From NCBI GenBank assembly GCA_964016885.1, contig CAXHJY010000565.1:124001-188000 (forward strand): 64,000 bases of DNA, in the 5' to 3' direction. This DNA comes from Eledone cirrhosa (lineage: Eukaryota). Below are positions 2,948 to 51,198 of this stretch, one piece after another. The notes beneath the pieces are model-generated. The model was given only the letters and a program-made list of their open reading frames with translations, made no database searches and had not been told where the DNA came from. The translations under genes were made by a program, and so were the position numbers. Positions within the stretch are counted from its first letter, which is position 1. Every line of letters starts with the position of its first letter.

Positions 2948-4660
2948 TCATCATCATCATCATCACCGTTTTACGTCCGTTCTTCCACGCTAGCATGGGT
3001 TAGACGGGTTGTCCTGTTGTGGGCAGTGTCTGGTCGGCTGACCATGCCTTGCTCATACAGGAACTGATCTGGCTTGATTTCTACAGCTGGATGCCCTTCC
3101 TAACACCAACCTCATTTACAGTGAGTGCTGGGTGCTTTTTCGTGGCGCCTACACGTCCACTTTACAGTGTGGGCTGGGTGCTTTTTTGCCGTGGCACCTC
3201 CACGACCACCTTGCGGTGGGGGGAGTGGGGGCATATTGTTTATATGCTTCAGCATGTACCCATGGGAGGTCGGGTACCCTGTATTACTGCGTGACGCCAG
3301 AAGTCACGGTCGTGTGTCATTGACTTTGAGAGGTGTAGTTGGGTAAGGTCGGCTTTTATCACCTCATCCCAAGTCATCTTGGGTCTCCCCACTCCGCGGT
3401 TTCCATCAACTTCTAGTGCTCTGCACCTTTTTATGCAGCTGTCATACCAGCGTAACCGCCTCTCCTGCACGCAGCATTTGATTCCTCTTATGCTCAGTCT
3501 CTCTCTCAATTCCTTTATGCTTTGTCGTTCACGTATATTACTGTTACACATCCATCGGAGCATGCAGGCTTCGTTTCTCTCTAATCTACGTAAGTCTTCC
3601 ACCTTCAGCGCCCAGGTCTCACTACCATGCAACATCGCTGTTCGGATACACGCATCATACAGTCTGCCTTTCATTCTGAGGGAGAAGCCTTTTGCAGCTA
3701 GCAGTGGTAGTAGTTCCCTAAACTTCTTCCATCCCGTTCTTACCCTAGTTATTGTACTTTCTGAGCACCCACCTCCGTTGCTAATTCGGTCACCTAGGTA
3801 GCAGAAGCTGTCTACTGTTTCTACAGGGCCCTCCCAGAGATTGGTGGTACTTGTTTCCTGTGGCTGTTTGCTTGCTGTTTCAGCACAGCTGCTGCATGTG
3901 AATCCTACATTCTTAATTAAGCTTCCTGAGATCCCGCTACATCTCTTGTGTACCCATTGTTTGCATTTGGGGCAGAGAATGGAGTTCCTACCTACACCTT
4001 TCCTACATACTGAGCAAGGCCATTTCCCTGAGGGGATCTGGGTTCTGTTTTCTCGTCTACTTATAAGGACCTTAGTCTTTGTCATGTTGACTTTGAGGCC
4101 CTTTCTCTCTAGTCCCTGCTTCCAGGTTTGGAATTTATTCTCTAGTTCTACCATAGATTCAGCTATGAGTGCGAGGTCATCAGCATACAGGAGTTCCCAT
4201 GGGCATCCGGTCTTAAACTCCTCCGTTATTGCCTGCAGGACTATGATGAACAGGAGAGGGCTAAGAACAGAGCCCTGGTGGACCCCAACCTGTACGCTAA
4301 ATTCGTCGCTATACTCATTGCTAATCCTAACTTTGCTGACTGCTCCCCTATACATGGCTTGTACCGCTTTCACAAGCCATTCATCTACTCCTAGTTTTCT
4401 AAGAGCCCACCAGATTACTGCACGTGGAACTCTGTCAAAGGCTTTCTCAAGGTCGACAAATGCCAAGTAGAGTGGCTTACTTTTAGCTAGGTACTTTTCC
4501 TGTAATTGCCTCACAAGAAAGAGGGCATCAGTGGTGCCTTTCCCTGGTACAAACCCAAATTGCATCTCGTCTATATTCACCCGGTCCCTAATCAGCTGGG
4601 CTATAACTCTTTCTGTTACTTTCATGACCTGGTCCATCAACTTTATACCTCTATAGTTTC
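2944..4660 (-). mobile_element. 5'-truncated RTE-clade LINE (RT with inserted PHD-type Cys cluster)
   Basis: ORF 3249-4660: QFGFVPGKGTTD, FVDLEKAFDRV, GVHQGSVLSPLLF, LLYADD, CSVC..CPKC..HKRC..CSSC, LHGSETW; (TGA)n tail at 2944-2964. Confidence 0.92.
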
Positions 4661-4957
4661 CATATATATATATATTCGTGTACAGTTTCCATATATATAT
4701 ATATTCGTGTACAGATATTTTTGCACACAATAACAAAATATAAGCAAACGTATTTATTTTACGAGCCTCGATAAGGATAAATATATATCATTTTTGCATA
4801 CACAATAACAAAATATAAACATAAGCATTTCACGATAAAGTATTGATTTTCTTCGCTCGGAAAAAACCCTGTTAATCTACGACGAATTTTCTTTATAAGC
4901 ACTAAATGTAGACACCATCCTGAGGCCGAGGTATTCCGTACTTCTCTCTACTGTTAT

Positions 4958-11041: not shown

Positions 11042-14000
11042 ATGGCTGTGTTAAGAGTAGGTTGTCTAAATGCGCGTGGCCTGGGCTCACGTTGGAAGCA
11101 AGCTAAACTTCTAAATGACCTCAGGTCACAATGTATAAATGTGATGGTTATTTGCGAGGCCCGGATCAGCAGCGTGCGACAGCTGGCCCCCACCTTTGAT
11201 GACTTTGAGATGCACGCATCTCTCTGCCAGCCCGGAGGTGGGGGTGGGGTTGTCGTTCTGCTGCAAAAACATCTGGGTCTCGCTACACAGACAGTACACT
11301 TGGACCCGGAGGGTCGACTCGTGGTTCTGGACCTTGGCAGTAGTGAAGGCAAAGTTTTTAGGCTTGTCGCCGTATACGCCCCTTTTGGGGCAATGCGGTC
11401 GGACTTCTTCCATCGTCTGGAGACTTTTCTAGGGACGTCCCGCTCCTTGCTTTTAGTGGGGAACTGGAATGGTATCCTAGATGCACGTTGGGACTATGTA
11501 GGGGCATGTCCCGATAGAGGGGGGTGTAACAGCCTCAAAGGGTTAATCGGCCGATTTGACCTGGCCGATAAATATCGACTAGATTTTCCGACTGTGCCAC
11601 CTGGACTTGGTCAAATAACAGTGGTCAATCTAGATCGTACCTAGATAGGTTCTTAGTTAGAATTAAAGATAGGGACTTTTTAAGTTGTCCAGAAATGCTC
11701 ATGGTGGGCTATTCAGACCACAAGTTAGTGACCTGCGTAGTCCACCTTGATAGAACGCATAGGCAGGGACCCGGTTACTGGAAGCTCAACTTGTCCTTAC
11801 CGGCAAGTAGAGCTTACAGGGACAGGATTAGAACCTTAGTTAAGGAGCGGTTGACGGGCGCCATCGTCAACAGCAGGTGGTGGGGCTCTCTAAAAAGAGA
11901 GATTAGAGTAGTTTCAATAGGAGTTAGTAAGGAGTTAGCCTCAGATAGAAATAGGAAGGAAAGGGAGTTGGTAGTTAATGTTGAAGAAGCAATGAGAAGC
12001 GGCAACGTGGCCAGAGTGCAAGCGTCGAGAACGGCCTTGAGCCAATTCTTCGACGCGAAACGCGAAAGCTGCGTTGTCCGAAGCAAAATACGTGCTCTGG
12101 GAAATGAGGGGACCAAAGCTGTTAGCTGGGCCCGTGTGACAGAAGCGAAAAGTGGGATTAGATCCACTATCCGGTCTTTGCGAGACCAGGATGGACGGGT
12201 GATCCTTGAACCTAAGCAAATGTGCGAGGCCTTTCAAAGGCACTTTGCCCGATTGTTCGGGAGGGGCGGGGGGCCGGTTGGAGATGTGGATTTCGGTCCA
12301 TACCTCGACGGCCTGCCGCGTCTTTCGGACAAGGAGGCGAGGTCCTGAGCGGGCCGATCTCAGCTGCTGAAATAGGGGACGTGCTGAGCCTATGCGGCAA
12401 ACGCAAATCTCCAGGTCTCGATGGTCTGCCCTACGAACTATATATTAATATGCCGGACTTGTTCCCCGATCTCCTCGAGGCGGTCTACTGCAACTGGCAA
12501 CAGAACGGGAGAATTCCCTGTTCTGTGGCCAAGGGCGTAGTCTCGCTAGTGAGGAAAGACGAGAACAAGGGAGATGACATTAGTAATTTTAGGCCCATAA
12601 CTCTGCTAAATGCAGAGTTAAAGATTTTGGCCAAGGTGTTAGCAAAGAGGTTGGCGCTTGTCGTGGGGGGCCTGGTGGGAGATGCGCAGACATGCGCTAT
12701 CCCGTCCAGGTCCATCCACGACAACCTCCACCTCATGCGATACATCATAGAGAGGGTTGGGAACGAACCCGGCTTTGGTGGGGCCCTGATAAATTTAGAT
12801 CAGTCTAAAGCGTTCGATAGGGTGGACCATGGTTACCTGGATGCGGTGCTAGCGGCGGCTGGGTTCGAACACGTTTTCAGGGGCTGGATCACTGCCATGC
12901 ACAGCAGCCGCATCTGCTCTAGAGTCAAGGTGAACGGCTACCTCTCGGAGCCGTTCGAAATCACCCGCTCCATCCGACAGGGCTGCCCTCTCTCCTCCCT
13001 TCTGTATGTATTGGCTCTCGAGCCACTACTGAAGAAGTTGGAGTTGTTGCAGGGCATCCCTTTGGAACCGGGATTGCGCAAAGCGGTGTAGGCCTACGCC
13101 GATGACGTAACAGTAATGGTGTCGACCACCGCGGAAATCGAGGCAATCGGCACCTTACTGGAGGAGTACGAAAGGTTGACAGGGGTCAAGCTGAACCGGG
13201 ACAAGCCAGTCGCTTTGCAACTCGGCGAGTGGAGGGGCAAAACTATGTCGTCCGACGGTATCGTCGGTCGGTGGACGGAGGGCCCGGTAAAGTTGCTTGG
13301 GGTCTGGTGGAGAAAAACTGGGGTGAGGTGACGAATAGGGTTTTTGCACTGACACAGAAGTGGGCCGAGTGCAAACTATCCCTGAAAGGTCGGGCGGAGG
13401 TGGCGAACGCTTACATAGCGTCCGTCATCTATTACCGCTTGACTGTCGTGCCTTGCTCGGGTGAGATCCTCGCCAAAATGGAGCGCGCTCTCTTTTATTT
13501 CCTTTGGAAGAAGAGGTCTCCTCTGGTGAGGAGATCCATCTGCTGTCAACACCCTTTGAAAGGAGGGCTGGGGATGCCGTGGCTAAAAATGCGTAAACAC
13601 GCATTGAGGCTAAGTCACCTCCAGGTATTCCTCACCGGTCAACCGGTGTGGGCCCCGTTTGTGAGGCGAGCCTTCCCGAGGCTCGTCTCGCTCACCGAGC
13701 TGCAGTCCTGGGTGAAGCAAAGACCGAGAAAACTGGGCGACTGGCACACCGAGTGTGCCCAGGCGCTCACGGCTCTCTGGCAGGCGGACCCGGCTATCGG
13801 TGGAGACTCCACCTCGTCATTCTATAGAGGGCTGGTGGTTAGCAGGTGCGACGACGCTCTCGGAGAAACCCTAGGCATGGAGGAGGACGAACTGGCCAGC
13901 CTATTCAGTAGGACTTCGGCCCGGGACCTATGGACAACTTCCAGACGTCCTTGGCCTGGCAGTGCTACCGAGGGGCTCTTCCCGTTCGGGATAAGTTCTA

Positions 14001-25349: not shown

Positions 25350-25600
25350 GTCAGCTCGGGGACTGCGATGGGTACAAAAGCCGCTCCAACTTATGCCAAC
25401 TTAGTCATGGCATACTTAGAAGTCCAGATATATGAACAGTCCAAATCAAAATACGGATTGAACTTCCACAAATATTTATCAGAGAATTGGAAACGCTACT
25501 TGGATGATTGCCTCATTCTTTGGTCCCACACACTCGACCAACTGAAGGATTTCAAAAACAATATATAACAGTTTTAACAACAATTTTAAATAGAACATTT
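25350..25600 (+). pseudogene. Penelope-like reverse transcriptase fragment
   Basis: GTAMGTKAAPTYANLVMAYLE...[12 protein letters not shown] (PLE RT motifs B'/C). Confidence 0.88.
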
Positions 25601-26206: not shown

Positions 26207-26480
26207 TATATATATATGAAGTATATATATATAAGTATATATATATAAAGTATATATATATATATAATTATATATATATAAAGTATATATATATATATAA
26301 AGTATATATATATATAAGTATATATATATAAAGTATATATATATATATAAGTATATATATATATATAAGTATATATATATAAAGTATATATATATATATA
26401 AGTATATATATATATATAAGTATATATATATATATATATATATATAAGTATAAATATATATATAAGTATATATATATATA

Positions 26481-27297
26481 GTGGGAAATGAAATATCGTT
26501 TCATTTTTTCCGTTTATCGTTTTCGGTGCACCCGGCCGATTAACCCACTCGATATGCAAATTGGGCTACTCAGCCGTTAATATGCATAAGGTAAGTATAT
26601 ACGTTCAACAATCTGGCAGGAAGGTATACGTTGCTGACGATAGCTAACAAGCTTGAAACTAGTACAGCGTTCCTTTGTCAGTGTTGAACAAACGAGCAAC
26701 GGTGGTTGCTAGACACTACGGCTTAATACGGGATGTTTGTTTACAAACACACCGAGCATTATAATAAATGTTCGGTGAATCCATGCGTGCATATATATAT
26801 GTGTGCATGTATGTATATATGTATATGCATACTACTGTACGTCGGTATACATATATGTATGTACGTGTACATACTTATATTTAAGTAACAGCCGTACTAA
26901 GAGTGGGAAATGAAATATCGTTTCATTTTTTCCGTCTATCGTTTTCGGTGCACCCTGCCGATTAACCCACTCGATATGCAAATTGGGTTATTCAGCCGTT
27001 AATATGCATAAGGTAAGTATATACGTTCAACAATCTGGCAGGAAAGTATACGTTGCTGACGATAGCTAACAAGCTTGAAATTAGTACAGCGTTCCTTTGT
27101 CAGTGTTGAACAAACGAGCAACGGTGGTTGCTAGACACTACGGCTTAATACGGGATGTTTGTTTACAAACACACCGAGCATTATAATAAATGTTCGGTGA
27201 ATCCATACGTGCATATATATATGTGTGCATGTATGTATATATGTATATGCATACTACTGTACGTCGGTATACATATATGTATGTACGTGTACATACT

Positions 27298-27300
<3 letters not shown>
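26481..27300 (+). mobile_element. Tandem dimer of a 422-bp retrozyme-like unit (HHRs 26628-26670 and 27050-27092)
   Basis: Units start at 26481 and 26903; acgttg CTGACGA tagct aaca agctt GAAAC TA GTA cagcgt (second copy GAAAT); embedded in (TA)n. Confidence 0.88.
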
Positions 27301-27377
<77 letters not shown>

Positions 27378-27380
27378 AAT

Positions 27381-28795
<1,415 letters not shown>

Positions 28796-29638: not shown

Positions 29639-29909
29639 AGTATATAAATATATATATATAAGTATATATATATAAGTATATAAATATATATATATAAGTA
29701 TATAAATATATATATATAAGTATATAAATATATATATATAAGTATATAAATATATATATATAAGTATATAAATATATATATATAAGTATATAAATATATA
29801 TATATAAGTATATATTTTGAGTTTATGTTGGTTGTATACCAACACCTCAGTATGCAGGCTGGAGCACTCGACGAAGAGCGCAGGTTGGTTTGGTTACTCC
29901 GGAGTAGTG

Positions 29910-30163
29910 TAAAATAAAGTTAAATAAAAGTCAAATGATTAAAATTTAGCTTCGTTTATTACTGCTATATATATTTCAGTGACAGCCATCTTTGGCTGTG
30001 ACCTCTTCAGGCAGTTTAAATTAGTATGGTATAGACAAGTACATATGTTATTTTCCAAACTGCCTGAAGAGGTCACAGCCAAAGATGGCTGTCACTGAAA
30101 TATATATAGCAGTGATAAACGAAGTTAAATTTTAATCATTTGACTTTTATTTAACTTTATTTT
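29910..30163. repeat. Fold-back with two divergent hammerheads (- strand 29961-30015, + strand 30059-30113)
   Basis: actgc CTGAAGA ggtcacagcc aaaga tggctgtcact GAAAT ATAT ATA gcagt on both strands. Confidence 0.9.
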
Positions 30164-30526: not shown

Positions 30527-30886
30527 AGTATAAAGAAAAAGAGATGAAATCGAAAATGCAACGGGAGTCTTATTTTTTTTTTTAAATATATATATTTATT
30601 TGGTTCCTTTACCGGTTTCGCAGTTCTTCTGCTTTTCAAAAGTAGAGTTGAGATGGAGGGTCTGTGGTTTTTCTCACATCTGAGGAACCACAGACCCTCC
30701 ATCTCAACTCTACTTTTGAAAAGCAGAAGAACTGCGAAACCGGTAAAGGAACCAAATAAATATATATATTTTTTTTTAAAATAAGACTCCAGTTGCATTT
30801 TCGATTTCATCTCTTTTTCTTTATACTTTCACTCGTGTAGGACACTTCGGTTATTTTTCAATTTGTAAAAGAAATCTCACTTTCTA
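30527..30886. repeat. Fold-back with two U3:A8 hammerheads (- strand 30606-30642, + strand 30713-30749)
   Basis: About 140-bp inverted arms; ctt TTGAAAA gcagaagaactgc GAAACCGGTA aagg. Confidence 0.82.
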
Positions 30887-30911
30887 ATATATAAGTATAT
30901 ATATATAAATA

Positions 30912-31009
<98 letters not shown>

Positions 31010-31085
31010 TATATATATATAAATATATATATATATAAATATATATATATATAAATATATATATATAGATAAATATATATATATA

Positions 31086-33881
31086 TTGGAATAAATGCTC
31101 TGAAATAGCGATATATATGTGAATATAGACATAGAATATTCGAAAATATTCTGTATGTTTATAATAAACATTTTGAAGACCTAATCGCTATAGAATAGAA
31201 TACGTCACGTATTACAATTAGATTCTCGATAAAAGCAAGGGAAGTAATCTACGCGTTTCATTCTTGTTAGAAATCTTCAGGACTACATATCCAGTGCTTT
31301 TATCGAGAATGACACAGCTAGAGACTTATAGAATACTTAGCTGTGTACAGGAACTGGTTTGAAAGAGCGGTTGCCGGTCCGGCAGAAATTAGGAATTGGA
31401 ATAAATGCTCTGAAATAGCGATATATATGTGAATATAGACATAGAATATTCGAAAATATTCTGTATGTTTATAATAAACATTTTGAAGACCTAATCGCTA
31501 TAGAATAGAATACGTCACGTATTACAATTAGATTCTCGATAAAGGCAAGGGAAGTAATCTACGCGTTTCATTCTTGTTAGAAATCTTCAGGACTACATAT
31601 CCAGTGCTTTTATCGAGAATGACACAGCTAGAGACTTATAGAATACTTAGCTGTGTACAGGAACTGGTTTGAAAGAGCGGTTGCCGGTCCGGCAGAAATT
31701 AGAAATTGGAATAAATGCTCTGAAATAGCGATATATATGTGAATATAGACATAGAATATTCGAAAATATTCTGTATGTTTATAATAAACATTTTGAAGAC
31801 CTAATCGCTATAGAATAGAATACGTCACGTATTACAATTAGATTCTCGATAAAAGCAAGGGAAGTAATCTACGCGTTTCATTCTTGTTAGAAATCTTCAG
31901 GACTACATATCCAGTGCTTTTATCGAGAATGACACAGCTAGAGACTTATAGAATACTTAGCTGTGTACAGGAACTGGTTTGAAAGAGCGGTTGCCGGTCC
32001 GGCAGAAATTAGAAATTGGAATAAATGCTCTGAAATAGCGATATATATGTGAATATAGACATAGAATATTCGAAAATATTCTGTATGTTTATAATAAACA
32101 TTTTGAAGACCTAATCGCTATAGAATAGAATACGTCACGTATTACAATTAGATTCTCGATAAAAGCAAGGGAAGTAATCTACGCGTTTCATTCTTGTTAG
32201 AAATCTTCAGGACTACATATCCAGTGCTTTTATCGAGAATGACACAGCTAGAGACTATTCTATAGCGATTAGGTCTTCAAAATGTTTATTATAAACATAC
32301 AGAATATTTTCGAATATTCTATGTCTATATTCACATATATATCGCTATTTCAGAGCATTTATTCCAATTTCTAATTTCTGCCGGACCGGCAACCGCTCTT
32401 TCAAACCAGTTCCTGTACACAGCTAAGTATTCTATAAGTCTCTAGCTGTGTCATTCTCGATAAAAGCACTGGATATGTAGTCCTGAAGATTTCTAACAAG
32501 AATGAAACGCGTAGATTACTTCCCTTGCTTTTATCGAGAATCTAATTGTAATACGTGACGTATTCTATTCTATAGCGATTAGGTCTTCAAAATGTTTATT
32601 ATAAACATACAGAATATTTTCGAATATTCTATGTCTATATTCACATATATATCGCTATTTCAGAGCATTTATTCCAATTTCTAATTTCTGCCGGACCGGC
32701 AACCGCTCTTTCAAACCAGTTCCTGTACACAGCTAAGTATTCTATAAGTCTCTAGCTGTGTCATTCTCGATAAAAGCACTGGATATGTAGTCCTGAAGAT
32801 TTCTAACAAGAATGAAACGCGTAGATTACTTCCCTTGCTTTTATCGAGAATCTAATTGTAATACGTGACGTATTCTATTCTATAGCGATTAGGTCTTCAA
32901 AATGTTTATTATAAACATACAGAATATTTTCGAATATTCTATGTCTATATTCACATATATATCGCTATTTCAGAGCATTTATTCCAATTTCTAATTTCTG
33001 CCGGACCGGCAACCGCTCTTTCAAACCAGTTCCTGTACACAGCTAAGTATTCTATAAGTCTCTAGCTGTGTCATTCTCGATAAAAGCACTGGATATGTAG
33101 TCCTGAAGATTTCTAACAAGAATGAAACGCGTAGATTACTTCCCTTGCTTTTATCGAGAATCTAATTGTAATACGTGACGTATTCTATTCTGTAGCGATT
33201 AGGTCTTCAAAATGTTTATTATAAACATACAGAATATTTTCGAATATTCTATGTCTATATTCACATATATATCGCTATTTCAGAGCATTTATTCCAATTT
33301 CTAATTTCTGCCGGACCGGCAACCGCTCTTTCAAACCAGTTCCTGTACACAGCTAAGTATTCTATAAGTCTCTAGCTGTGTCATTCTCGATAAAAGCACT
33401 GGATATGTAGTCCTGAAGATTTCTAACAAGAATGAAACGCGTAGATTACTTCCCTTGCTTTTATCGAGAATCTAATTGTAATACGTGACGTATTCTATTC
33501 TATAGCGATTAGGTCTTCAAAATGTTTATTATAAACATACAGAATATTTTCGAATATTCTATGTCTATATTCACATATATATCGCTATTTCAGAGCATTT
33601 ATTCCAATTTCTAATTTCTGCCGGACCGGCAACCGCTCTTTCAAACCAGTTCCTGTACACAGCTAAGTATTCTATAAGTCTCTAGCTGTGTCATTCTCGA
33701 TAAAAGCACTGGATATGTAGTCCTGAAGATTTCTAACAAGAATGAAACGCGTAGATTACTTCCCTTGCTTTTATCGAGAATCTAATTGTAATACGTGACG
33801 TATTCTATTCTATAGCGATTAGGTCTTCAAAATGTTTATTATAAACATACAGAATATTTTCGAATATTCTATGTCTATATT

Positions 33882-33888
<7 letters not shown>
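31086..33888. repeat. Head-to-head concatemer of a 310-bp hammerhead unit (about 3.8 + 5.3 copies)
   Basis: Period 310 (tacgtcacgt at 31201/31511/31821/32131); inversion near 32256; HHR gtagtc CTGAAGA tttct aaca agaat GAAAC GC GTA gattac on - at 31244, 31554, 31864, 32174 and on + at 32477, 32787, 33097, 33407, 33717. Confidence 0.95.
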
Positions 33889-33937
<49 letters not shown>

Positions 33938-33987
33938 TATATAAATATATATATATAAGTATATATATATAAATATATATATATAAG

Positions 33988-34019
<32 letters not shown>

Positions 34020-34085
34020 AATATTTATATATATATATATATAAATATATCTATATATATAAGTATATAAATATATATATATAAG

Positions 34086-34117
<32 letters not shown>

Positions 34118-34221
34118 ACAATATAAATATATATATATATATATATAACAATATAAATATATATATATATAAGTATATAAATATATATATATATATATAT
34201 ATAAGTATATAAATATATATA

Positions 34222-37200
34222 TATAAAAACAAATAACGAAACGAAATTAAATTTCGTTTCGTTTGTAACTCACTTTTGTATGACTGACGCTTAAACAATT
34301 AAATTAAAAATGTACATCCACATATGTATACTGAAATACTAGTATGCATATGAATACACACACGTGTACATATGTAGATGTACCGAGTTTTTCACTGGAC
34401 ACTTTACTGTGAGTGTCCAGCTATTCTGTATGTAAACACACAGACAAACCGGTTTTTAGAGTCATACTGGTTTTCGAGGAAACACCTTTCCTCTATTCTC
34501 CAGAAAGCCAGACAAGGAATATTGGACTAGTTTCGATGTTGTTACATCTCATCAGCAATATTTACCTATCTTCCGGCCTTTCTAGAGAATCGTAAAAGCA
34601 CATATCGTTATATGCTTTTTCTATGAAAATTAGTAGTGGGCAGACTAATTTGCATAGAGCGTGAGTACGTACCGGTTCAGCGGAGACGATAAAAACAAAT
34701 AACGAAACGAAATTAAATTTCGTTTCGTTTGTAACTCACTTTTGTATGACTGACGCTTAAACAATTAAATTAAAAATGTACATCCACATATGTATACTGA
34801 AATACTAGTATGCATATGAATACACACACGTGTACATATGTAGATGTACCGAGTTTTTCACTGGACACTTTACTGTGAGTGTCCAGCTATTCTGTATGTA
34901 AACACACAGACAAACCGGTTTTTAGAGTCATACTGGTTTTCGAGGAAACACCTTTCCTCTATTCTCCAGAAAGCCAGACAAGGAATATTGGACTAGTTTC
35001 GATGTTGTTACATCTCATCAGCAATATTTACCTATCTTCCGGCCTTTCTAGAGAATCGTAAAAGCACATATCGTTATATGCTTTTTCTATGAAAATTAGT
35101 AGTGGGCAGACTAATTTGCATAGAGCGTGAGTACGTACCGGTTCAGCGGAGACGATAAAAACAAATAACGAAACGAAATTAAATTTCGTTTCGTTTGTAA
35201 CTCACTTTTGTATGACTGACGCTTAAACAATTAAATTAAAAATGTACATCCACATATGTATACTGAAATACTAGTATGCATATGAATACACACACGTGTA
35301 CATATGTAGATGTACCGAGTTTTTCACTGGACACTTTACTGTGAGTGTCCAGCTATTCTGTATGTAAACACACAGACAAACCGGTTTTTAGAGTCATACT
35401 GGTTTTCGAGGAAACACCTTTCCTCTATTCTCCAGAAAGCCAGACAAGGAATATTGGACTAGTTTCGATGTTGTTACATCTCATCAGCAATATTTACCTA
35501 TCTTCCGGCCTTTCTAGAGAATCGTAAAAGCACATATCGTTATATGCTTTTTCTATGAAAATTAGTAGTGGGCAGACTAATTTGCATAGAGCGTGAGTAC
35601 GTACCGGTTCAGCGGAGACGATAAAAACAAATAACGAAACGAAATTAAATTTCGTTTCGTTTGTAACTCACTTTTGTATGACTGACGCTTAAACAATTAA
35701 ATTAAAAATGTACATCCACATATGTATACTGAAATACTAGTATGCATATGAATACACACACGTGTACATATGTAGATGTACCGAGTTTTTCACTGGACAC
35801 TTTACTGTGAGTGTCCAGCTATTCTGTATGTAAACACACAGACAAACCGGTTTTTAGAGTCATACTGGTTTTCGAGGAAACACCTTTCCTCTATTCTCCA
35901 GAAAGCCAGACAAGGAATATTGGACTAGTTTCGATGTTGTTACATCTCATCAGCAATATTTACCTATCTTCCGGCCTTTCTAGAGAATCGTAAAAGCACA
36001 TATCGTTATATGCTTTTTCTATGAAAATTAGTAGTGGGCAGACTAATTTGCATAGAGCGTGAGTACGTACCGGTTCAGCGGAGACGATAAAAACAAATAA
36101 CGAAACGAAATTAAATTTCGTTTCGTTTGTAACTCACTTTTGTATGACTGACGCTTAAACAATTAAATTAAAAATGTACATCCACATATGTATACTGAAA
36201 TACTAGTATGCATATGAATACACACACGTGTACATATGTAGATGTACCGAGTTTTTCACTGGACACTTTACTGTGAGTGTCCAGCTATTCTGTATGTAAA
36301 CACACAGACAAACCGGTTTTTAGAGTCATACTGGTTTTCGAGGAAACACCTTTCCTCTATTCTCCAGAAAGCCAGACAAGGAATATTGGACTAGTTTCGA
36401 TGTTGTTACATCTCATCAGCAATATTTACCTATCTTCCGGCCTTTCTAGAGAATCGTAAAAGCACATATCGTTATATGCTTTTTCTATGAAAATTAGTAG
36501 TGGGCAGACTAATTTGCATAGAGCGTGAGTACGTACCGGTTCAGCGGAGACGATAAAAACAAATAACGAAACGAAATTAAATTTCGTTTCGTTTGTAACT
36601 CACTTTTGTATGACTGACGCTTAAACAATTAAATTAAAAATGTACATCCACATATGTATACTGAAATACTAGTATGCATATGAATACACACACGTGTACA
36701 TATGTAGATGTACCGAGTTTTTCACTGGACACTTTACTGTGAGTGTCCAGCTATTCTGTATGTAAACACACAGACAAACCGGTTTTTAGAGTCATACTGG
36801 TTTTCGAGGAAACACCTTTCCTCTATTCTCCAGAAAGCCAGACAAGGAATATTGGACTAGTTTCGATGTTGTTACATCTCATCAGCAATATTTACCTATC
36901 TTCCGGCCTTTCTAGAGAATCGTAAAAGCACATATCGTTATATGCTTTTTCTATGAAAATTAGTAGTGGGCAGACTAATTTGCATAGAGCGTGAGTACGT
37001 ACCGGTTCAGCGGAGACGATAAAAACAAATAACGAAACGAAATTAAATTTCGTTTCGTTTGTAACTCACTTTTGTATGACTGACGCTTAAACAATTAAAT
37101 TAAAAATGTACATCCACATATGTATACTGAAATACTAGTATGCATATGAATACACACACGTGTACATATGTAGATGTACCGAGTTTTTCACTGGACACTT

Positions 37201-40200
37201 TACTGTGAGTGTCCAGCTATTCTGTATGTAAACACACAGACAAACCGGTTTTTAGAGTCATACTGGTTTTCGAGGAAACACCTTTCCTCTATTCTCCAGA
37301 AAGCCAGACAAGGAATATTGGACTAGTTTCGATGTTGTTACATCTCATCAGCAATATTTACCTATCTTCCGGCCTTTCTAGAGAATCGTAAAAGCACATA
37401 TCGTTATATGCTTTTTCTATGAAAATTAGTAGTGGGCAGACTAATTTGCATAGAGCGTGAGTACGTACCGGTTCAGCGGAGACGATAAAAACAAATAACG
37501 AAACGAAATTAAATTTCGTTTCGTTTGTAACTCACTTTTGTATGACTGACGCTTAAACAATTAAATTAAAAATGTACATCCACATATGTATACTGAAATA
37601 CTAGTATGCATATGAATACACACACGTGTACATATGTAGATGTACCGAGTTTTTCACTGGACACTTTACTGTGAGTGTCCAGCTATTCTGTATGTAAACA
37701 CACAGACAAACCGGTTTTTAGAGTCATACTGGTTTTCGAGGAAACACCTTTCCTCTATTCTCCAGAAAGCCAGACAAGGAATATTGGACTAGTTTCGATG
37801 TTGTTACATCTCATCAGCAATATTTACCTATCTTCCGGCCTTTCTAGAGAATCGTAAAAGCACATATCGTTATATGCTTTTTCTATGAAAATTAGTAGTG
37901 GGCAGACTAATTTGCATAGAGCGTGAGTACGTACCGGTTCAGCGGAGACGATAAAAACAAATAACGAAACGAAATTAAATTTCGTTTCGTTTGTAACTCA
38001 CTTTTGTATGACTGACGCTTAAACAATTAAATTAAAAATGTACATCCACATATGTATACTGAAATACTAGTATGCATATGAATACACACACGTGTACATA
38101 TGTAGATGTACCGAGTTTTTCACTGGACACTTTACTGTGAGTGTCCAGCTATTCTGTATGTAAACACACAGACAAACCGGTTTTTAGAGTCATACTGGTT
38201 TTCGAGGAAACACCTTTCCTCTATTCTCCAGAAAGCCAGACAAGGAATATTGGACTAGTTTCGATGTTGTTACATCTCATCAGCAATATTTACCTATCTT
38301 CCGGCCTTTCTAGAGAATCGTAAAAGCACATATCGTTATATGCTTTTTCTATGAAAATTAGTAGTGGGCAGACTAATTTGCATAGAGCGTGAGTACGTAC
38401 CGGTTCAGCGGAGACGATAAAAACAAATAACGAAACGAAATTAAATTTCGTTTCGTTTGTAACTCACTTTTGTATGACTGACGCTTAAACAATTAAATTA
38501 AAAATGTGTGTTTACATACAGAATAGCTGGACACTCACAGTAAAGTGTCCAGTGAAAAACTCGGTACATCTACATATGTACACGTGTGTGTATTCATATG
38601 CATACTAGTATTTCAGTATACATATGTGGATGTACATTTTTAATTTAATTGTTTAAGCGTCAGTCATACAAAAGTGAGTTACAAACGAAACGAAATTTAA
38701 TTTCGTTTCGTTATTTGTTTTTATCGTCTCCGCTGAACCGGTACGTACTCACGCTCTATGCAAATTAGTCTGCCCACTACTAATTTTCATAGAAAAAGCA
38801 TATAACGATATGTGCTTTTACGATTCTCTAGAAAGGCCGGAAGATAGGTAAATATTGCTGATGAGATGTAACAACATCGAAACTAGTCCAATATTCCTTG
38901 TCTGGCTTTCTGGAGAATAGAGGAAAGGTGTTTCCTCGAAAACCAGTATGACTCTAAAAACCGGTTTGTCTGTGTGTTTACATACAGAATAGCTGGACAC
39001 TCACAGTAAAGTGTCCAGTGAAAAACTCGGTACATCTACATATGTACACGTGTGTGTATTCATATGCATACTAGTATTTCAGTATACATATGTGGATGTA
39101 CATTTTTAATTTAATTGTTTAAGCGTCAGTCATACAAAAGTGAGTTACAAACGAAACGAAATTTAATTTCGTTTCGTTATTTGTTTTTATCGTCTCCGCT
39201 GAACCGGTACGTACTCACGCTCTATGCAAATTAGTCTGCCCACTACTAATTTTCATAGAAAAAGCATATAACGATATGTGCTTTTACGATTCTCTAGAAA
39301 GGCCGGAAGATAGGTAAATATTGCTGATGAGATGTAACAACATCGAAACTAGTCCAATATTCCTTGTCTGGCTTTCTGGAGAATAGAGGAAAGGTGTTTC
39401 CTCGAAAACCAGTATGACTCTAAAAACCGGTTTGTCTGTGTGTTTACATACAGAATAGCTGGACACTCACAGTAAAGTGTCCAGTGAAAAACTCGGTACA
39501 TCTACATATGTACACGTGTGTGTATTCATATGCATACTAGTATTTCAGTATACATATGTGGATGTACATTTTTAATTTAATTGTTTAAGCGTCAGTCATA
39601 CAAAAGTGAGTTACAAACGAAACGAAATTTAATTTCGTTTCGTTATTTGTTTTTATCGTCTCCGCTGAACCGGTACGTACTCACGCTCTATGCAAATTAG
39701 TCTGCCCACTACTAATTTTCATAGAAAAAGCATATAACGATATGTGCTTTTACGATTCTCTAGAAAGGCCGGAAGATAGGTAAATATTGCTGATGAGATG
39801 TAACAACATCGAAACTAGTCCAATATTCCTTGTCTGGCTTTCTGGAGAATAGAGGAAAGGTGTTTCCTCGAAAACCAGTATGACTCTAAAAACCGGTTTG
39901 TCTGTGTGTTTACATACAGAATAGCTGGACACTCACAGTAAAGTGTCCAGTGAAAAACTCGGTACATCTACATATGTACACGTGTGTGTATTCATATGCA
40001 TACTAGTATTTCAGTATACATATGTGGATGTACATTTTTAATTTAATTGTTTAAGCGTCAGTCATACAAAAGTGAGTTACAAACGAAACGAAATTTAATT
40101 TCGTTTCGTTATTTGTTTTTATCGTCTCCGCTGAACCGGTACGTACTCACGCTCTATGCAAATTAGTCTGCCCACTACTAATTTTCATAGAAAAAGCATA

Positions 40201-41915
40201 TAACGATATGTGCTTTTACGATTCTCTAGAAAGGCCGGAAGATAGGTAAATATTGCTGATGAGATGTAACAACATCGAAACTAGTCCAATATTCCTTGTC
40301 TGGCTTTCTGGAGAATAGAGGAAAGGTGTTTCCTCGAAAACCAGTATGACTCTAAAAACCGGTTTGTCTGTGTGTTTACATACAGAATAGCTGGACACTC
40401 ACAGTAAAGTGTCCAGTGAAAAACTCGGTACATCTACATATGTACACGTGTGTGTATTCATATGCATACTAGTATTTCAGTATACATATGTGGATGTACA
40501 TTTTTAATTTAATTGTTTAAGCGTCAGTCATACAAAAGTGAGTTACAAACGAAACGAAATTTAATTTCGTTTCGTTATTTGTTTTTATCGTCTCCGCTGA
40601 ACCGGTACGTACTCACGCTCTATGCAAATTAGTCTGCCCACTACTAATTTTCATAGAAAAAGCATATAACGATATGTGCTTTTACGATTCTCTAGAAAGG
40701 CCGGAAGATAGGTAAATATTGCTGATGAGATGTAACAACATCGAAACTAGTCCAATATTCCTTGTCTGGCTTTCTGGAGAATAGAGGAAAGGTGTTTCCT
40801 CGAAAACCAGTATGACTCTAAAAACCGGTTTGTCTGTGTGTTTACATACAGAATAGCTGGACACTCACAGTAAAGTGTCCAGTGAAAAACTCGGTACATC
40901 TACATATGTACACGTGTGTGTATTCATATGCATACTAGTATTTCAGTATACATATGTGGATGTACATTTTTAATTTAATTGTTTAAGCGTCAGTCATACA
41001 AAAGTGAGTTACAAACGAAACGAAATTTAATTTCGTTTCGTTATTTGTTTTTATCGTCTCCGCTGAACCGGTACGTACTCACGCTCTATGCAAATTAGTC
41101 TGCCCACTACTAATTTTCATAGAAAAAGCATATAACGATATGTGCTTTTACGATTCTCTAGAAAGGCCGGAAGATAGGTAAATATTGCTGATGAGATGTA
41201 ACAACATCGAAACTAGTCCAATATTCCTTGTCTGGCTTTCTGGAGAATAGAGGAAAGGTGTTTCCTCGAAAACCAGTATGACTCTAAAAACCGGTTTGTC
41301 TGTGTGTTTACATACAGAATAGCTGGACACTCACAGTAAAGTGTCCAGTGAAAAACTCGGTACATCTACATATGTACACGTGTGTGTATTCATATGCATA
41401 CTAGTATTTCAGTATACATATGTGGATGTACATTTTTAATTTAATTGTTTAAGCGTCAGTCATACAAAAGTGAGTTACAAACGAAACGAAATTTAATTTC
41501 GTTTCGTTATTTGTTTTTATCGTCTCCGCTGAACCGGTACGTACTCACGCTCTATGCAAATTAGTCTGCCCACTACTAATTTTCATAGAAAAAGCATATA
41601 ACGATATGTGCTTTTACGATTCTCTAGAAAGGCCGGAAGATAGGTAAATATTGCTGATGAGATGTAACAACATCGAAACTAGTCCAATATTCCTTGTCTG
41701 GCTTTCTGGAGAATAGAGGAAAGGTGTTTCCTCGAAAACCAGTATGACTCTAAAAACCGGTTTGTCTGTGTGTTTACATACAGAATAGCTGGACACTCAC
41801 AGTAAAGTGTCCAGTGAAAAACTCGGTACATCTACATATGTACACGTGTGTGTATTCATATGCATACTAGTATTTCAGTATACATATGTGGATGTACATT
41901 TTTAATTTAATTGTT
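34222..41915. repeat. Head-to-head concatemer of a 466-bp hammerhead unit (about 9.2 + 7.3 copies)
   Basis: Period 466; inversion near 38507; HHR aatattg CTGATGA gatgt aaca acatc GAAAC TA GTC caatatt, 9 on - (first 34518-34562) and 7 on + (first 38851-38895). Confidence 0.96.
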
Positions 41916-41945
41916 TTTTAATTTAATTATATATATATATATAAG

Positions 41946-42741: not shown

Positions 42742-42800
42742 TATATATATATATATATATATATATATAAGTATATATATAAGTATATATATATATATAC

Positions 42801-43119
42801 ATTAATAAGAGGAATTCGAACTTTGTCTGATTTACTCGTTTTATTTACAATCCTTTAAAATATATAATGGTATTATAATGAAATAGTATGATAGAATATT
42901 AAATTCTAAGTGTTAATTGAACAAGTACTTTCATGCTTTCGCAATCTTCAGGTTCATAATATGTGGTGACAGTCAAGTTTGCAAATGCAAACTTGACTGT
43001 CAATTAACACTTAGAATTTAATATTCTATCATACTATTTCATTATAATACCATTATATATTTTAAAGGATTGTAAATAAAACGAGTAAATCAGACAAAGT
43101 TGGAATTCCTCTTATTAAT
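42801..43119. repeat. Fold-back (120-bp arms) with a - strand hammerhead at 42918-42956
   Basis: Minus strand: tgaac CTGAAGA t tgc gaaa gca t GAAAG TA CTT gttca; central hairpin 42967-43002. Confidence 0.85.
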
Positions 43120-43176
43120 ATAATCTTCTATACACAATCATACACACCCGTGTATATTTACCTATCTATCTATATA

Positions 43177-45823: not shown

Positions 45824-46449
45824 TATATATGCACATGTATATATGCACATGTATATATGCACATGTATATATGCACATATATAAAAAAACATGCATATTT
45901 GTATGCATATATATGTGCATATATATATATTCACATTTATATACAAATATATATACATACCCATAGATATTTGTTATTTTAGCTTGTGAAACTGCAGTAA
46001 GAGGGAAAAAATTCGTTAATCGCCATGTATTTCGCTTGACAATGAATTTTGCCTTTGGGATGATACACGTATAAGAGCCCTTTATTTAAAGATACTTTTA
46101 AGATACTTCCCTATAGTCAATTCTGAGCGTTATTTGATAGTTCAATATTTGTATTTATAAGCTTCTCTAGATTATATTCTAAGCGATATTATTCATAAAG
46201 ATGTAATGTATATTACTGAATAATTTTCAAATATATATATATAAATAAATATGAGTTTTCATACGTATGTATCAGCTGTGCTAAGGCGAGAAATAAAAGT
46301 AAACACTTGAGTCTGTTTAATCCGGGGTATACTTATAATCATGAAGTACATGTCAACGGGTTATAATCGCTGTTATATAATGGTTGTCACCGAAATATAT
46401 ATAACAGCGATTATGAACATATACATATATTTATGTGCATTTGTATGTA

Positions 46450-47030
46450 CGAGGTGTGTCAGAATAATTCCAGGACTGATGTCACAAAAGATTTATTTCA
46501 AACCCAAACTTCACACTAAGAGTTTTCTCCTTCAAAGTAATTCTCCTGGAGTATGTAACTGTAATTTTAGCTCTCTGCAGCGATCAAACTTTTTTCTACA
46601 TAATTTTATATACTTGTCCTCTGTTTCAGGTCGTCAAGCAATGAGCACAGAGCAACGAACAAACTTGAAAACTCCGTCAGAAACACTGGGATTGCTGCAG
46701 CAAGTGTATGGAGATATGACGATGTCACGCTCCCGTGTTTTTGAGTGGTGCAAGAGGTTTAAAGAAGGACGTGAGGACGTGGAAGATGACCCCAGGAGCG
46801 GAAGGCTCTCAACAACCAGGATTGAGGTCAACGTTGAGCGCATCAGGCAGATGATGCGTAGCGAATGTCGGCTGACTGTTCGACTGATGGCAAATGAACT
46901 GGGCATGAATCGGGACAGCGTCTGGAAGATTCTCACTGAAGATTTGGACATGCGGAAAGTCTGCGCGAAGATGGTGCCAAAACTGTTGAACGGTGACCAG
47001 AAGGGTCGACGCATGCAAGTGTGCCAGGAT
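46450..47030 (+). mobile_element. Truncated mariner transposon (5' TIR + HTH domain)
   Basis: TA|CGAGGTGTGTCAG end; LQQVYGD.TMSRSRVFEWCKRFKEGREDVEDDPRSGR...KVCAKMVPKLL. Confidence 0.88.
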
Positions 47031-47462
47031 ATATATATATACACATATACATATACATACATATATAAATATATGTGTACATTTTTGTACTCGATAGTAT
47101 AAATTAGACTCTGTAGTTTCGCTAAGGCAACCCGCGTAGGAGATGGAGCCCCCTTATTTCAAAGGCCTACGATTATAGTATCATGTGACATGTGGAATAC
47201 GGAACACCAGGACTTGATGTACTTCTGTAGAGAGTGTGCATTGTAAAGTAGAGAGAACTAACTACCTTAATCTAATCATGTTAGCAATTTTGTTCGGTAA
47301 ATCAACTGTGTACATCGGCATCTTGTGCGCCTCTCTCCCTCCCTTTTTTCCACAATCCACCTCTCCCTCATCCCCCCTCCTCTCTCTCCCTCACTCCATC
47401 CCTCCTCTCTCTCTCTCTCTTTCCTCTCTCTCTCTCTCTTTCTCTCTCTCTCTTTCTCTCTT

Positions 47463-49202: not shown

Positions 49203-51198
49203 ATCTACATCTAAGGCGGGTAAAATTCCCGAGATCCATGGACGAGTTCTCTCCAGCGGTCTCTGTCCCTCATTATCGCTGCCATATCCTGCATCTCCAA
49301 CAGACCAGTGTCTGTCCTTAGGGTATCAACATATGTTAACCTTGGTCTTCCTCTTCTAGTGTATCCATGTAGGGGCTCCCAAAGGAGCACTGAGTGCAAT
49401 GTCAACTCTGGATGTCGGTGAGCATGTCCAGCCAACCTCAGTCTCCTCTGTGTCACTTTTGAGCTGACTTCTTGGATGCTCCCATACAGCTCTGAGTTTT
49501 TCATCCTCAGTGTATACAGATTAATGTTCAGAGCCATCCTCAGCATTCTCGTGTAGCACCCATCCACCATCTGAGTGAGTTTCTTGGTCAGTGTCCAAGT
49601 CTCAGACCCATACAGCAACACAGACTCCACTACAGCAATGAAGGTCCGACTTCCACACCGATCTCAAGCTGTGGCACGCCGCCCAGGCCTTGCTCTTCCT
49701 CTCAACCACATCATCTTCCGTATTCCCAATCTTTGCTCCCAAATACAGGAAGTCCTCAACCAATTCCAGCGGCTTCCCGCCTACATTAGTGATCCCCTCT
49801 GGCTTCTCAACATTCTCTACCAGATATTTTGTTTTAGTCTCATTCATTCTCAGCCGCACACTCATCGACACAGTCTCAACCTCCCGCATCAAATCCTCTG
49901 CCTCCTTCACTGTATTTGTCACCAAAACTATGTCGTCGGCAAATTCAGCATCCGATACCTTTTTCGCCCTAACTCTCCTGCTCTGAGCCGGTGCTACAGT
50001 AAAGCCAGAGTCCTGGTGTTTCTCCAGTGCAAGGCGCATACAATAGTCCACTACGATGATAAAAAGGTAGGGAGCCAATGTATCTCCCTGGAGCACTCCA
50101 GCAAGTATCTCAAAGAACTCTGTCATCCCATCAGGTGTAATGACTTGGGCTTTGGTGTTGGTGTAGAGCAGTGATATCAGGTCCACTATCCTCTTGGGGA
50201 TTCCATAAGCCTGTAAGATCTTCATCAGGCAGTAACGGTCCACAGAATCAAAGGCCTTCCTAAAGTCAATGAAAACCATGACCGCAGGAAGGCACTTTGC
50301 TCTAGCTCCCTCTAATATCCTCCTCAGCATCAGGATGTGACTGGTGGTTGATCTACCCTCTCTGAAGCCGTTCTGGTTGTCCCTGAGCTTCTTTTCCATC
50401 TCAGGCTGGATCCTGTTAAGAATCATCCTGTTGAGGGTCTTTGCCACAAGTGACGTCAGTGAGATCCCCCGGTAGTTGTTGGTGTTAGAGAGATCTCCCT
50501 TCTTTGGCACTGGGACGATGTTACTGATCCTCCACTGATTCGGGGCAACTCCTTTCTCCAGTGCCCCGTTACAGAACCCCAGGATGATATCATCAAAATC
50601 ACACCTCTTCATCACCTCTGATGACACTCCATCTTCTCCATGAGCCTTGCCCTCCTTGATCTTCTTCTTGGCTCTCTGAAGCTCCTCACTGGTGAAGGGC
50701 TCTGTCTCAACATCCAGTTCCTCAAACAGCCGCCTGATCTCCCAGTGCTCTGGGCTGTGGAGGGTGGCTCTCCTAGTAGGGTCCTAAAATGGTCTAGCCA
50801 TTTCCTCTTCCTATCCTCGGGCCCCGTTCCCTGGATCTGACTCGAACACCTTCTCTTCCTCCCTGTGATCTCGTTGATTATCATCCAGCTCTCCTTACAT
50901 CCAGATCTGTCAACCGCTCTCTCCACACTTCTGATCTTCTCTATCAGTGCCTCCTCTCTGACCTCAGTGTAAGCGGTACAGAGCTCTTCCCTCATCACCT
51001 CCACAGTCTCCATCCTCACCTCCGTAGGATCAGAATAGAATTGGTCCCTGGCAGCTTTCAGGTGTTCTCTGGCTGCACACACTTTTGGGTCTGCAGAGCT
51101 GACGTGCTTCCCTTTGTTCTTTTTCCTCGGCACCAGGGTTTCACTTGCTTCCGCCACTGCATTGGTGAAGTGCCCGTACCTCCTCGTCACACTCTCCT
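49203..51198 (-). mobile_element. 5'-truncated RTE-clade LINE, frameshifted
   Basis: PVPKKGDL..NYRGISL, QNGFREGRST, FIDFRKAFD, GVLQGDTLAPYLF, FADD, LLYGSETW, RRGRP. Confidence 0.92.

Follow-up and report, generated by a model that had tools for sequence, protein, structure and literature searches.

A young two-armed retrozyme insertion in Eledone cirrhosa with the insertion footprint of Penelope-like elements

For the non-LTR retrozymes of metazoans, a circular RNA template and a helper from Penelope-like elements (PLEs) have been proposed (PMC7229834). Retrozymes have also been linked by phylogeny to the pLTRs of PLEs, with the mechanism left open, in a preprint whose available text reports that eight of nine Xenopus retrozymes tested did not cleave (Li et al., 10.64898/2026.07.22.740005). 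PLE insertions are described as tandems with an inverted, 5′-truncated copy, a tail of 30–40 bp at one end only and a bias for microsatellites (PMC8557442), and the same geometry has been reported with target duplications of 8–10 bp (PMC3846280). In vitro, the PLE protein PAc cuts and extends both strands of AT-rich DNA, and its cDNA starts at two adjacent internal sites that are not homologous to the target and whose spacing equals the tail; its main substrate was uncleaved RNA (PMC11167929). The return of retrozymes to the genome, and the inverted copies and one-sided tails of PLEs, are stated to be open in the available parts of this literature (PMC7229834, PMC8557442, 10.64898/2026.07.22.740005).

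Here we describe a head-to-head array of a 310-bp hammerhead unit from Eledone cirrhosa. The window analysed is a stretch of 64,000 nucleotides (assembly GCA_964016885.1, contig CAXHJY010000565.1, positions 124,001 to 188,000, forward strand), and all window coordinates count from its first letter. The element proves to be a genuine and young insertion of a non-LTR retrozyme, and it bears the footprint of PLE insertion.

The two-armed element and its hammerhead

Tandem Repeats Finder resolves the element into two 310-bp arrays, of 3.8 copies (31085–32256) and 5.3 copies (32255–33892), each with 99% matches. The RNA 5′ ends of both arms meet at 32255–32256 (Table 1), and all nine copies together depart from the unit by three substitutions. 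The unit has a G+C content of 0.34, and no open reading frame (ORF) of 120 amino acids lies within either arm. The right end can be placed anywhere in the interval 33884–33892, since the AT run of the unit is matched by the flank over these bases. The original prediction, made from the letters of the window, had described a 310-nt unit with an antisense left arm and a sense right arm of unequal copy number, (TA)n flanks, a right end at 33888 that merges into the (TA)n at the AT run, and a gap of about 330 bp to a neighbouring 466-bp array. Each of these features was recovered: (TA)n-like runs occur at both ends, the predicted right end lies inside the placeable interval, and the 466-bp array begins at 34223, 330 bp past 33892.

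Table 1. Features of the 310-bp element in the window. Unit positions (u) are counted from u1 = 32514, the first base after the predicted cleavage site.
Feature	Window position	Strand	Remarks
Left (TA)n-like target flank	30887..31084		
Left arm	31085..32256	-	3.78 units, antisense to the hammerhead; outer end (RNA 3′) at u165 = site B; inner end at u234
Further antisense-arm predicted cleavage sites	after 31870, 31560, 31250	-	
First antisense-arm hammerhead	32170..32219	-	core begins 32210; predicted cleavage after 32180
Head-to-head junction of arms	32255..32256		2-nt overlap (microhomology)
Right arm	32255..33892	+	5.28 units, sense to the hammerhead; inner end at u52; outer end at site A, u131-139 (33884-33892)
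16-bp clamp below stem I, 5′ strand	32453..32468	+	
First sense type I hammerhead	32474..32523	+	core from 32483; predicted cleavage after 32513
16-bp clamp, 3′ strand	32526..32541	+	
Conserved structured element just upstream of site A	32572..32658 (u59-145)	+	two hairpins inside a closing helix
35-nt tail between sites A (u130) and B (u165)	32643..32678	+	shown on the first full sense unit
Further sense predicted cleavage sites	after 32823, 33133, 33443, 33753	+	every 310 nt
Right (TA)n-like target flank	33893..34222		common to the element and the neighbouring 466-bp array

The predicted hammerhead core (CUGAAGA...GAAAC-GC-GUA) is complete in all nine copies, five on the forward and four on the reverse strand. 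Its stem I has 6 bp, stem II begins with a U–U pair and stem III is a 2-bp palindrome. Stem I has a pair probability of 0.78–1.0 and stem II is weak (0.15–0.18); stem III pairs better between two molecules (−9.5 kcal/mol) and would need a dimer. The 101-nt hammerhead piece folds with z = −5.4 (0 of 200 shuffles equally good), and a core-like pattern arose in 1 of 1000 shuffles of the unit. The 16-bp stem that clamps the ribozyme, predicted to be perfect, is so in eight of the nine copies and carries one substitution, at 31544, in the other; an inverted repeat of this length appeared in none of 300 dinucleotide shuffles of the unit. Rfam did not call the 310-unit hammerhead at the gathering score, and at E ≤ 10 the best 150 of 213 matches included no hammerhead for this unit.

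Several other elements lie in the same window. The 466-bp hammerhead array (34223–41916) is also head-to-head, with outer ends at its positions 302 and 232 (a 70-nt offset) and a 3-nt overlap at its junction (38505–38507); it matches Rfam Hammerhead_HH9 below the gathering score (E ≤ 10), the only such match among the best 150 of 213. Solo head-to-head pLTR inserts of an ORF-bearing PLE family (L142, L146) occupy 27586–27891 and 30533–30887, each with one short and one long end and with no canonical hammerhead seen. A solo head-to-head pLTR insert of a second PLE family (L144, L147) at 42799–43170 has a hammerhead at 42951 on the minus strand, with A7 and a U–U first pair in stem II. A 422-bp hammerhead unit, whose relationship to the 466 family is weak and which has relatives in L095, L152 and L153, occurs twice in (TA)n at 26480–27302, and a short inverted insert with unequal arms lies in (TA)n at 29814–30163. 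Three reverse transcriptase (RT) frames without GIY-YIG, a mariner-type HTH frame and a piece of PLE RT were found at 3249–4787, 12216–13091, 49602–50783, 46311–47102 and 25356–25559, the last being a 68-aa piece identical to the PLE RT of L142.

Outer ends and target across the genome

The 3.0-Gb assembly contains at least 9,610 hammerhead cores of the 310 family (exact pattern with two free places), a lower bound because several haplotypes escape the pattern. The B-end junction of the family occurs 1,004 times, which corresponds to about 1,000 or more insertions. Two sets of loci were analysed. The identity-picked set comprises 38 loci chosen for their identity to the window unit, after the scoring of 39 out of 169 candidates; 30 of these are two-armed in the window geometry, seven are one-armed and one is unclear. 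The end-picked set comprises 40 further loci on C1, chosen regardless of haplotype, of which 38 were usable. The unit is repeated up to 27 times per arm, and arms are 99.9% identical to the unit across chromosomes.

Every one of the 68 readable outer ends in the identity-picked loci and the window falls within one of two short intervals, u127–139 (site A, 37 ends) or u164–172 (site B, 31 ends), with modal positions u130 and u165, 35 nt apart. Each of the 30 two-armed identity-picked loci with both ends readable has one A end and one B end. An independent test on C1:1-170.7 Mb, for which 78 A ends and 63 B ends were listed, gave the same result: all 40 head-to-head end pairs were A–B, with no A–A or B–B pair (P about 8e-13). 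End-picked loci are A–B by construction and were excluded from this comparison. (TA)n-like DNA abuts 64 of the 68 outer ends. Target duplications of 9–12 bp were found at three loci (L031, L041 and L046) by a permissive search, most of whose rows are trivial; such duplications are not readable in pure (TA)n, the window included. The original prediction had favoured a mechanism over ordinary satellite drift, and this is supported: the family is scattered through the genome as short inserts of two arms, which lie in (TA)n and end at two fixed outer sites. Other copies might have been long head-to-tail satellites away from (TA)n; instead the sampled ones are mostly two-armed, with ends that mostly abut (TA)n-like DNA.

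The same prediction had proposed, from the right end that merges into the (TA)n at the AT run, microhomology priming on the microsatellite, and here it was mostly not borne out. Twenty-three of the 37 A ends stop at u127–130, before the run, with a match of 0–2 nt to the flank, and the 31 B ends mostly match the flank by about 2 nt. Two copies of a sibling family that lack the AT run stop at the homologous place (read by eye). Ends that stop before the run, and sibling copies that end alike without it, therefore indicate that the ends are set by position. The presence of one A and one B end per locus is a direct observation; by analogy with the two cDNA start sites of PAc in vitro (PMC11167929), we take the outer ends to be position-defined start sites, whose placement the AT run may help in a minority of cases.

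The sibling retrozyme family (L161–L190) is older and about 319 nt in length, with 3,665 motif places; it has u59–235 in common with the 310 unit at 75–80%, uses the same two end sites and carries variant hammerhead cores (for example, U3 with A8). The structured element just upstream of site A belongs to this common part, at 75–80%, and is likely a signal for enzyme binding. Within the shared part, three pairs are changed on both sides among 19 related sequences from about two or three lineages, a hairpin covariation that is suggestive only.

At one locus, L060, the B arm is just 27 nt long and stops at the start of site A, as if blocked by the other primer acting on the same molecule; a 23-nt copy of this B arm sits in the flank.

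The family was also seen in public data. Runs under 17 other organism labels contain 62–79% of the sampled words of window 31900–32900; as a cause, horizontal spread is less likely than contamination, prey or related species. In X12 and X4 the unit is assembled as a single closed contig of 340 bases that differs from the window copy by two letters, and a circle or a collapsed low-cover tandem array would fit this contig equally well. Run X20 contains a 280-base piece of the unit. None of the runs listed with the unit is on record as RNA.

Template and origin of the two arms

PLE-type twin priming very probably wrote the insertion, and it is probable, if with less assurance, that it did so with a monomer RNA circle as the usual template. 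Inner ends are spread evenly over the unit (P 0.19), and 1 of 136 lies within 5 nt of the cleavage site, against 4.4 expected. Arms pass over the cleavage site 657 times with two variant calls; the enzyme thus neither halts nor stumbles at the cut site. Mapping of ends relative to the cleavage site, which had been put forward as a check of the original prediction, places the outer ends at A and B and leaves the inner ends indifferent to the cut. Where the two arms meet without an insert, 29 of 47 junctions overlap by at least 2 nt, compared with 19% by chance, and 20 of 67 junctions carry 1–14 extra bases; these overlap counts, and the reach counts below, omit L035 and L053 (assembly gaps), L108 (no alignment), L129 (internal deletion) and L101 (complex junction).

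The template of each insertion was approached through sequence variants. Six hammerhead haplotypes occur among the 38 usable end-picked loci, and both arms carry the identical haplotype in 34 of 35 testable loci (33 by script, L135 by eye), where chance would give agreement with a probability of 0.22 each. Seven variants that are private within the 38 sampled loci are fixed in every unit of both arms, in six loci. Such a variant can run through as many as 24 of 24 units, while other variants are found in a single unit. Non-fixed variants occur at 0.64 per kb of arm, so that 10–20% of single units bear one; six of 38 loci with fixed private variants is near the 0.1–0.2 expected, and fits each insertion copying one unit.

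Inherited and single-unit changes also differ in kind. In the hammerhead and clamp, all eight inherited substitutions fall on free bases or keep a pair, whereas 2 of the 23 single-unit substitutions do so (P 6e-6, or 4e-5 when indels are counted). Single-unit changes that coincide with family variants were left out of this test, which inflates the contrast. The exceptions among inherited changes are two insertions of 1 nt in stem I. This pattern suggests that inherited changes spare a ribozyme whose self-cleavage is a prediction. A>G accounts for 4 of the 10 rare inherited changes and for 2 of the 94 changes confined to one unit, an excess that would fit either an edited sense RNA or selection in favour of wobble pairs. 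Among single-unit changes, T>C outnumbers A>G on the sense strand by 20 to 2, and these strand-biased T>C changes are not shared between arms; they would fit RT errors made anew in each pass.

The same PLE twin priming at A and B could also have used as its usual template a long, linear, uncleaved multimer from an existing array, with the hammerhead incidental or only occasionally at work. We consider this unlikely, even though two loci speak for it. At L130 (G000:C1:136718998-136726382) the two outermost units of each arm carry one haplotype and the units that follow carry another, so that the arms agree in register when counted from their outer ends; at L121 the arms have one single-unit variant at the same register. 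No single monomer circle could produce these patterns, which need a multimeric template, a joint template switch or the copying of one arm from the other. A linear template would also agree with the weakness of stems II and III and with the uncleaved RNA that is the main substrate of PAc in vitro (PMC11167929). It accords poorly with the private variants fixed in all units of both arms, with inherited changes that spare the ribozyme, and with the number of shared variants: copying of long transcripts of present-day arrays would predict up to about 38 in-register variants shared between arms, whereas sharing of single-unit variants is seen at two loci, compared with 61 calls that are unshared. 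The haplotype switch of L130 has no second example in the assembly, which leaves that locus without a donor.

Such a donor would be unnecessary if one target-primed cDNA folded back to make the inverted arm, a self-priming of the kind proposed for Penelope (PMC3846280), with the second end set by endonuclease resolution. This would account for the in-register mosaic of L130, and B arms are indeed the longer in the end-picked set (median 1586 against 933 for A arms, P 0.011). We nevertheless regard it as quite improbable. At 27 of 67 loci, including that of the window, it is the A arm that reaches further, and the junctions show no palindromy (6 of 68 come within 10 nt, where 4.6 are expected). 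Arm-to-arm copying therefore does not hold as a general rule. In addition, the strand-biased T>C changes, likely RT errors, differ between arms, and six of the seven one-armed inserts end at site A.

Li et al. favour local satellite growth after insertion (10.64898/2026.07.22.740005); applied here, short solo pLTR pieces would have inserted and then grown by unequal exchange, their arms being homogenised by gene conversion. Growth of this kind is visible in duplicated blocks of 2–7 units inside arms at six loci (L033, L036, L050, L051, L054 and L111), and some arm length therefore arose after insertion or in assembly. As the origin of the arrays, however, it is very improbable, given private variants that are fixed across whole arms beside others confined to one unit, an L130 pattern that is in register from the outer ends and not from the junction, a mutation bias on the sense strand, and the 99.9% identity of arms to the unit across chromosomes. 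The 310-family data instead favour multimers made at insertion.

That the inversion is an artefact of assembly or library (fold-back reads) is barely credible: although none of the contig pieces listed from three public runs of one sample that hold the family spans junction 32256, contigs of those runs contain nine other head-to-head joints at a depth of 5–48, and A and B ends against TA, while in the assembly the arms are unequal, the flanks differ, each locus has a junction of its own, and the ends are always one A and one B.

Under PLE-type twin priming on a circle, insertion would proceed as follows. Transcripts of tandem copies would be cleaved by their hammerheads and circularised at a length of 310 nt. 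The hairpins upstream of u130 would be bound by a PLE protein, probably as a dimer, which would make a staggered cut in both strands of (TA)n, a stagger to which the 9–12 bp duplications at three loci point. One DNA end would start cDNA at A and the other at B, and each enzyme would travel round the putative circle a variable number of times, stopping anywhere, as the uniform inner ends suggest. The two cDNA ends would then be joined via 1–5 nt of microhomology or a short fill-in, which is the pattern seen at the junctions, and some arms would later have been altered in length by the block duplications observed. Besides L130 and L121, the seven one-armed loci, the weak stem II, the stem III that would need a dimer and the Xenopus retrozymes that did not cleave (10.64898/2026.07.22.740005) count against this scheme. 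In its most specific form, to which we give an even chance, a dimeric PLE enzyme loads one ribozyme-made, sometimes A-to-I edited, 310-nt circle, gives one start site to each cut end and runs both round, sometimes switching circle together (L130).

If true, such twin rolling-circle reverse transcription would supply the missing step of the retrozyme life cycle and, for PLEs, would explain tail and inversion as one event; it would also point to a natural enzyme that turns a small RNA circle into DNA arrays of several kilobases. The family is very young, and its roughly 1,000 or more near-identical inserts make both questions countable. A 310-nt RNA with two predicted start sites is, in turn, a defined substrate for in vitro work.

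Comparison with retrozymes, Penelope-like elements and L1

A helper would have to come from outside the element: an ORF with RT and GIY-YIG is absent from the 310 element and present elsewhere in the genome, which holds 10,597 GIY-YIG candidates. ORF-bearing RT + GIY-YIG elements at L141, L146 and L147 likewise lie head-to-head in (TA)n with unequal ends, and counting by hand gives them tails of about 38 to 65 nt. A CxxC motif before the nuclease suggests that these PLEs belong to the Neptune clade, as defined in the available text of PMC8557442. No ORF-bearing PLE sharing sequence with the 310 unit was found in 50 of the 10,597 candidates, and no ORF-linked homologue of the unit in 30 of the 3,665 sibling motif places. 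In the window, the three ORFs with an RT domain carry no GIY-YIG and are unmatched by PLE proteins, which match the short RT fragment at 25356–25559.

The element at L141 (G000:C1:83810000-83819999) is an apparently intact PLE, with a 1096-aa frame, direct pLTRs and an inverted 5′ piece. Its tail of about 38 nt ends in a site-B-like sequence; it is a candidate helper and has no sequence similarity to the 310 unit.

Like the metazoan non-LTR retrozymes, the 310 family consists of a tandem, non-coding unit of ~300 bp (criterion 150–450 bp) with low G+C (PMC7229834, PMC7761336), has one type I hammerhead per unit and no LTR, PBS or PPT, and is dispersed as non-autonomous dimers to multimers in a genome that also holds PLEs (PMC7229834). 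Retrozyme papers show circles and cleavage, whereas the 310 family is known from sequence alone (PMC7229834). Two-armed inverted inserts with two fixed ends and a (TA)n target, as found here, are not described in the available retrozyme texts (PMC7229834, 10.64898/2026.07.22.740005): the word 'inverted' is absent from the available text of the former, and in that of the latter it stands only within a reference title. Nor are two-armed retrozyme inserts described in the titles and abstracts listed by searches of the literature outside subscription journals.

The resemblance to EN+ PLEs (Neptune, Penelope/Poseidon and Naiad) is equally close. In both, a head-to-head, 5′-truncated inverted copy lies in an AT-rich or (TA)n target with short target duplications (PMC8557442, PMC3846280), and a hammerhead stands upstream of the 3′ end, with two adjacent start sites, putative in the 310 family, that lack homology to the target (PMC8557442, PMC11167929); the 35-nt offset between A and B falls in the PLE tail range of 30–40 bp (PMC8557442, PMC11167929). 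The strict rule of one A and one B end and the shared template of the two arms, counted here for the 310 family, are not stated for PLEs in the available text of PMC8557442 and PMC3846280. The element and the geometry are thus each of a known kind; the literature searched yielded neither the two in combination nor the template evidence. The array had originally been called independent of its 466-bp neighbour, which holds for its sequence (no BLAST similarity at E < 0.05) but not for its geometry, which is the known PLE pattern. Unlike EN+ PLEs, the 310 family has no ORF, and its whole insert is a pLTR-sized unit in repeats.

In L1 twin priming, both target ends prime cDNA on one RNA, giving a head-to-head inversion joined by microhomology. 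The 310 family has the same head-to-head arms and microhomology joint. L1 arms, however, are non-overlapping parts of a linear RNA, whereas both arms of the 310 family cover the same sequence many times; and the second L1 primer lands by homology, whereas both putative start sites of the 310 family are fixed.
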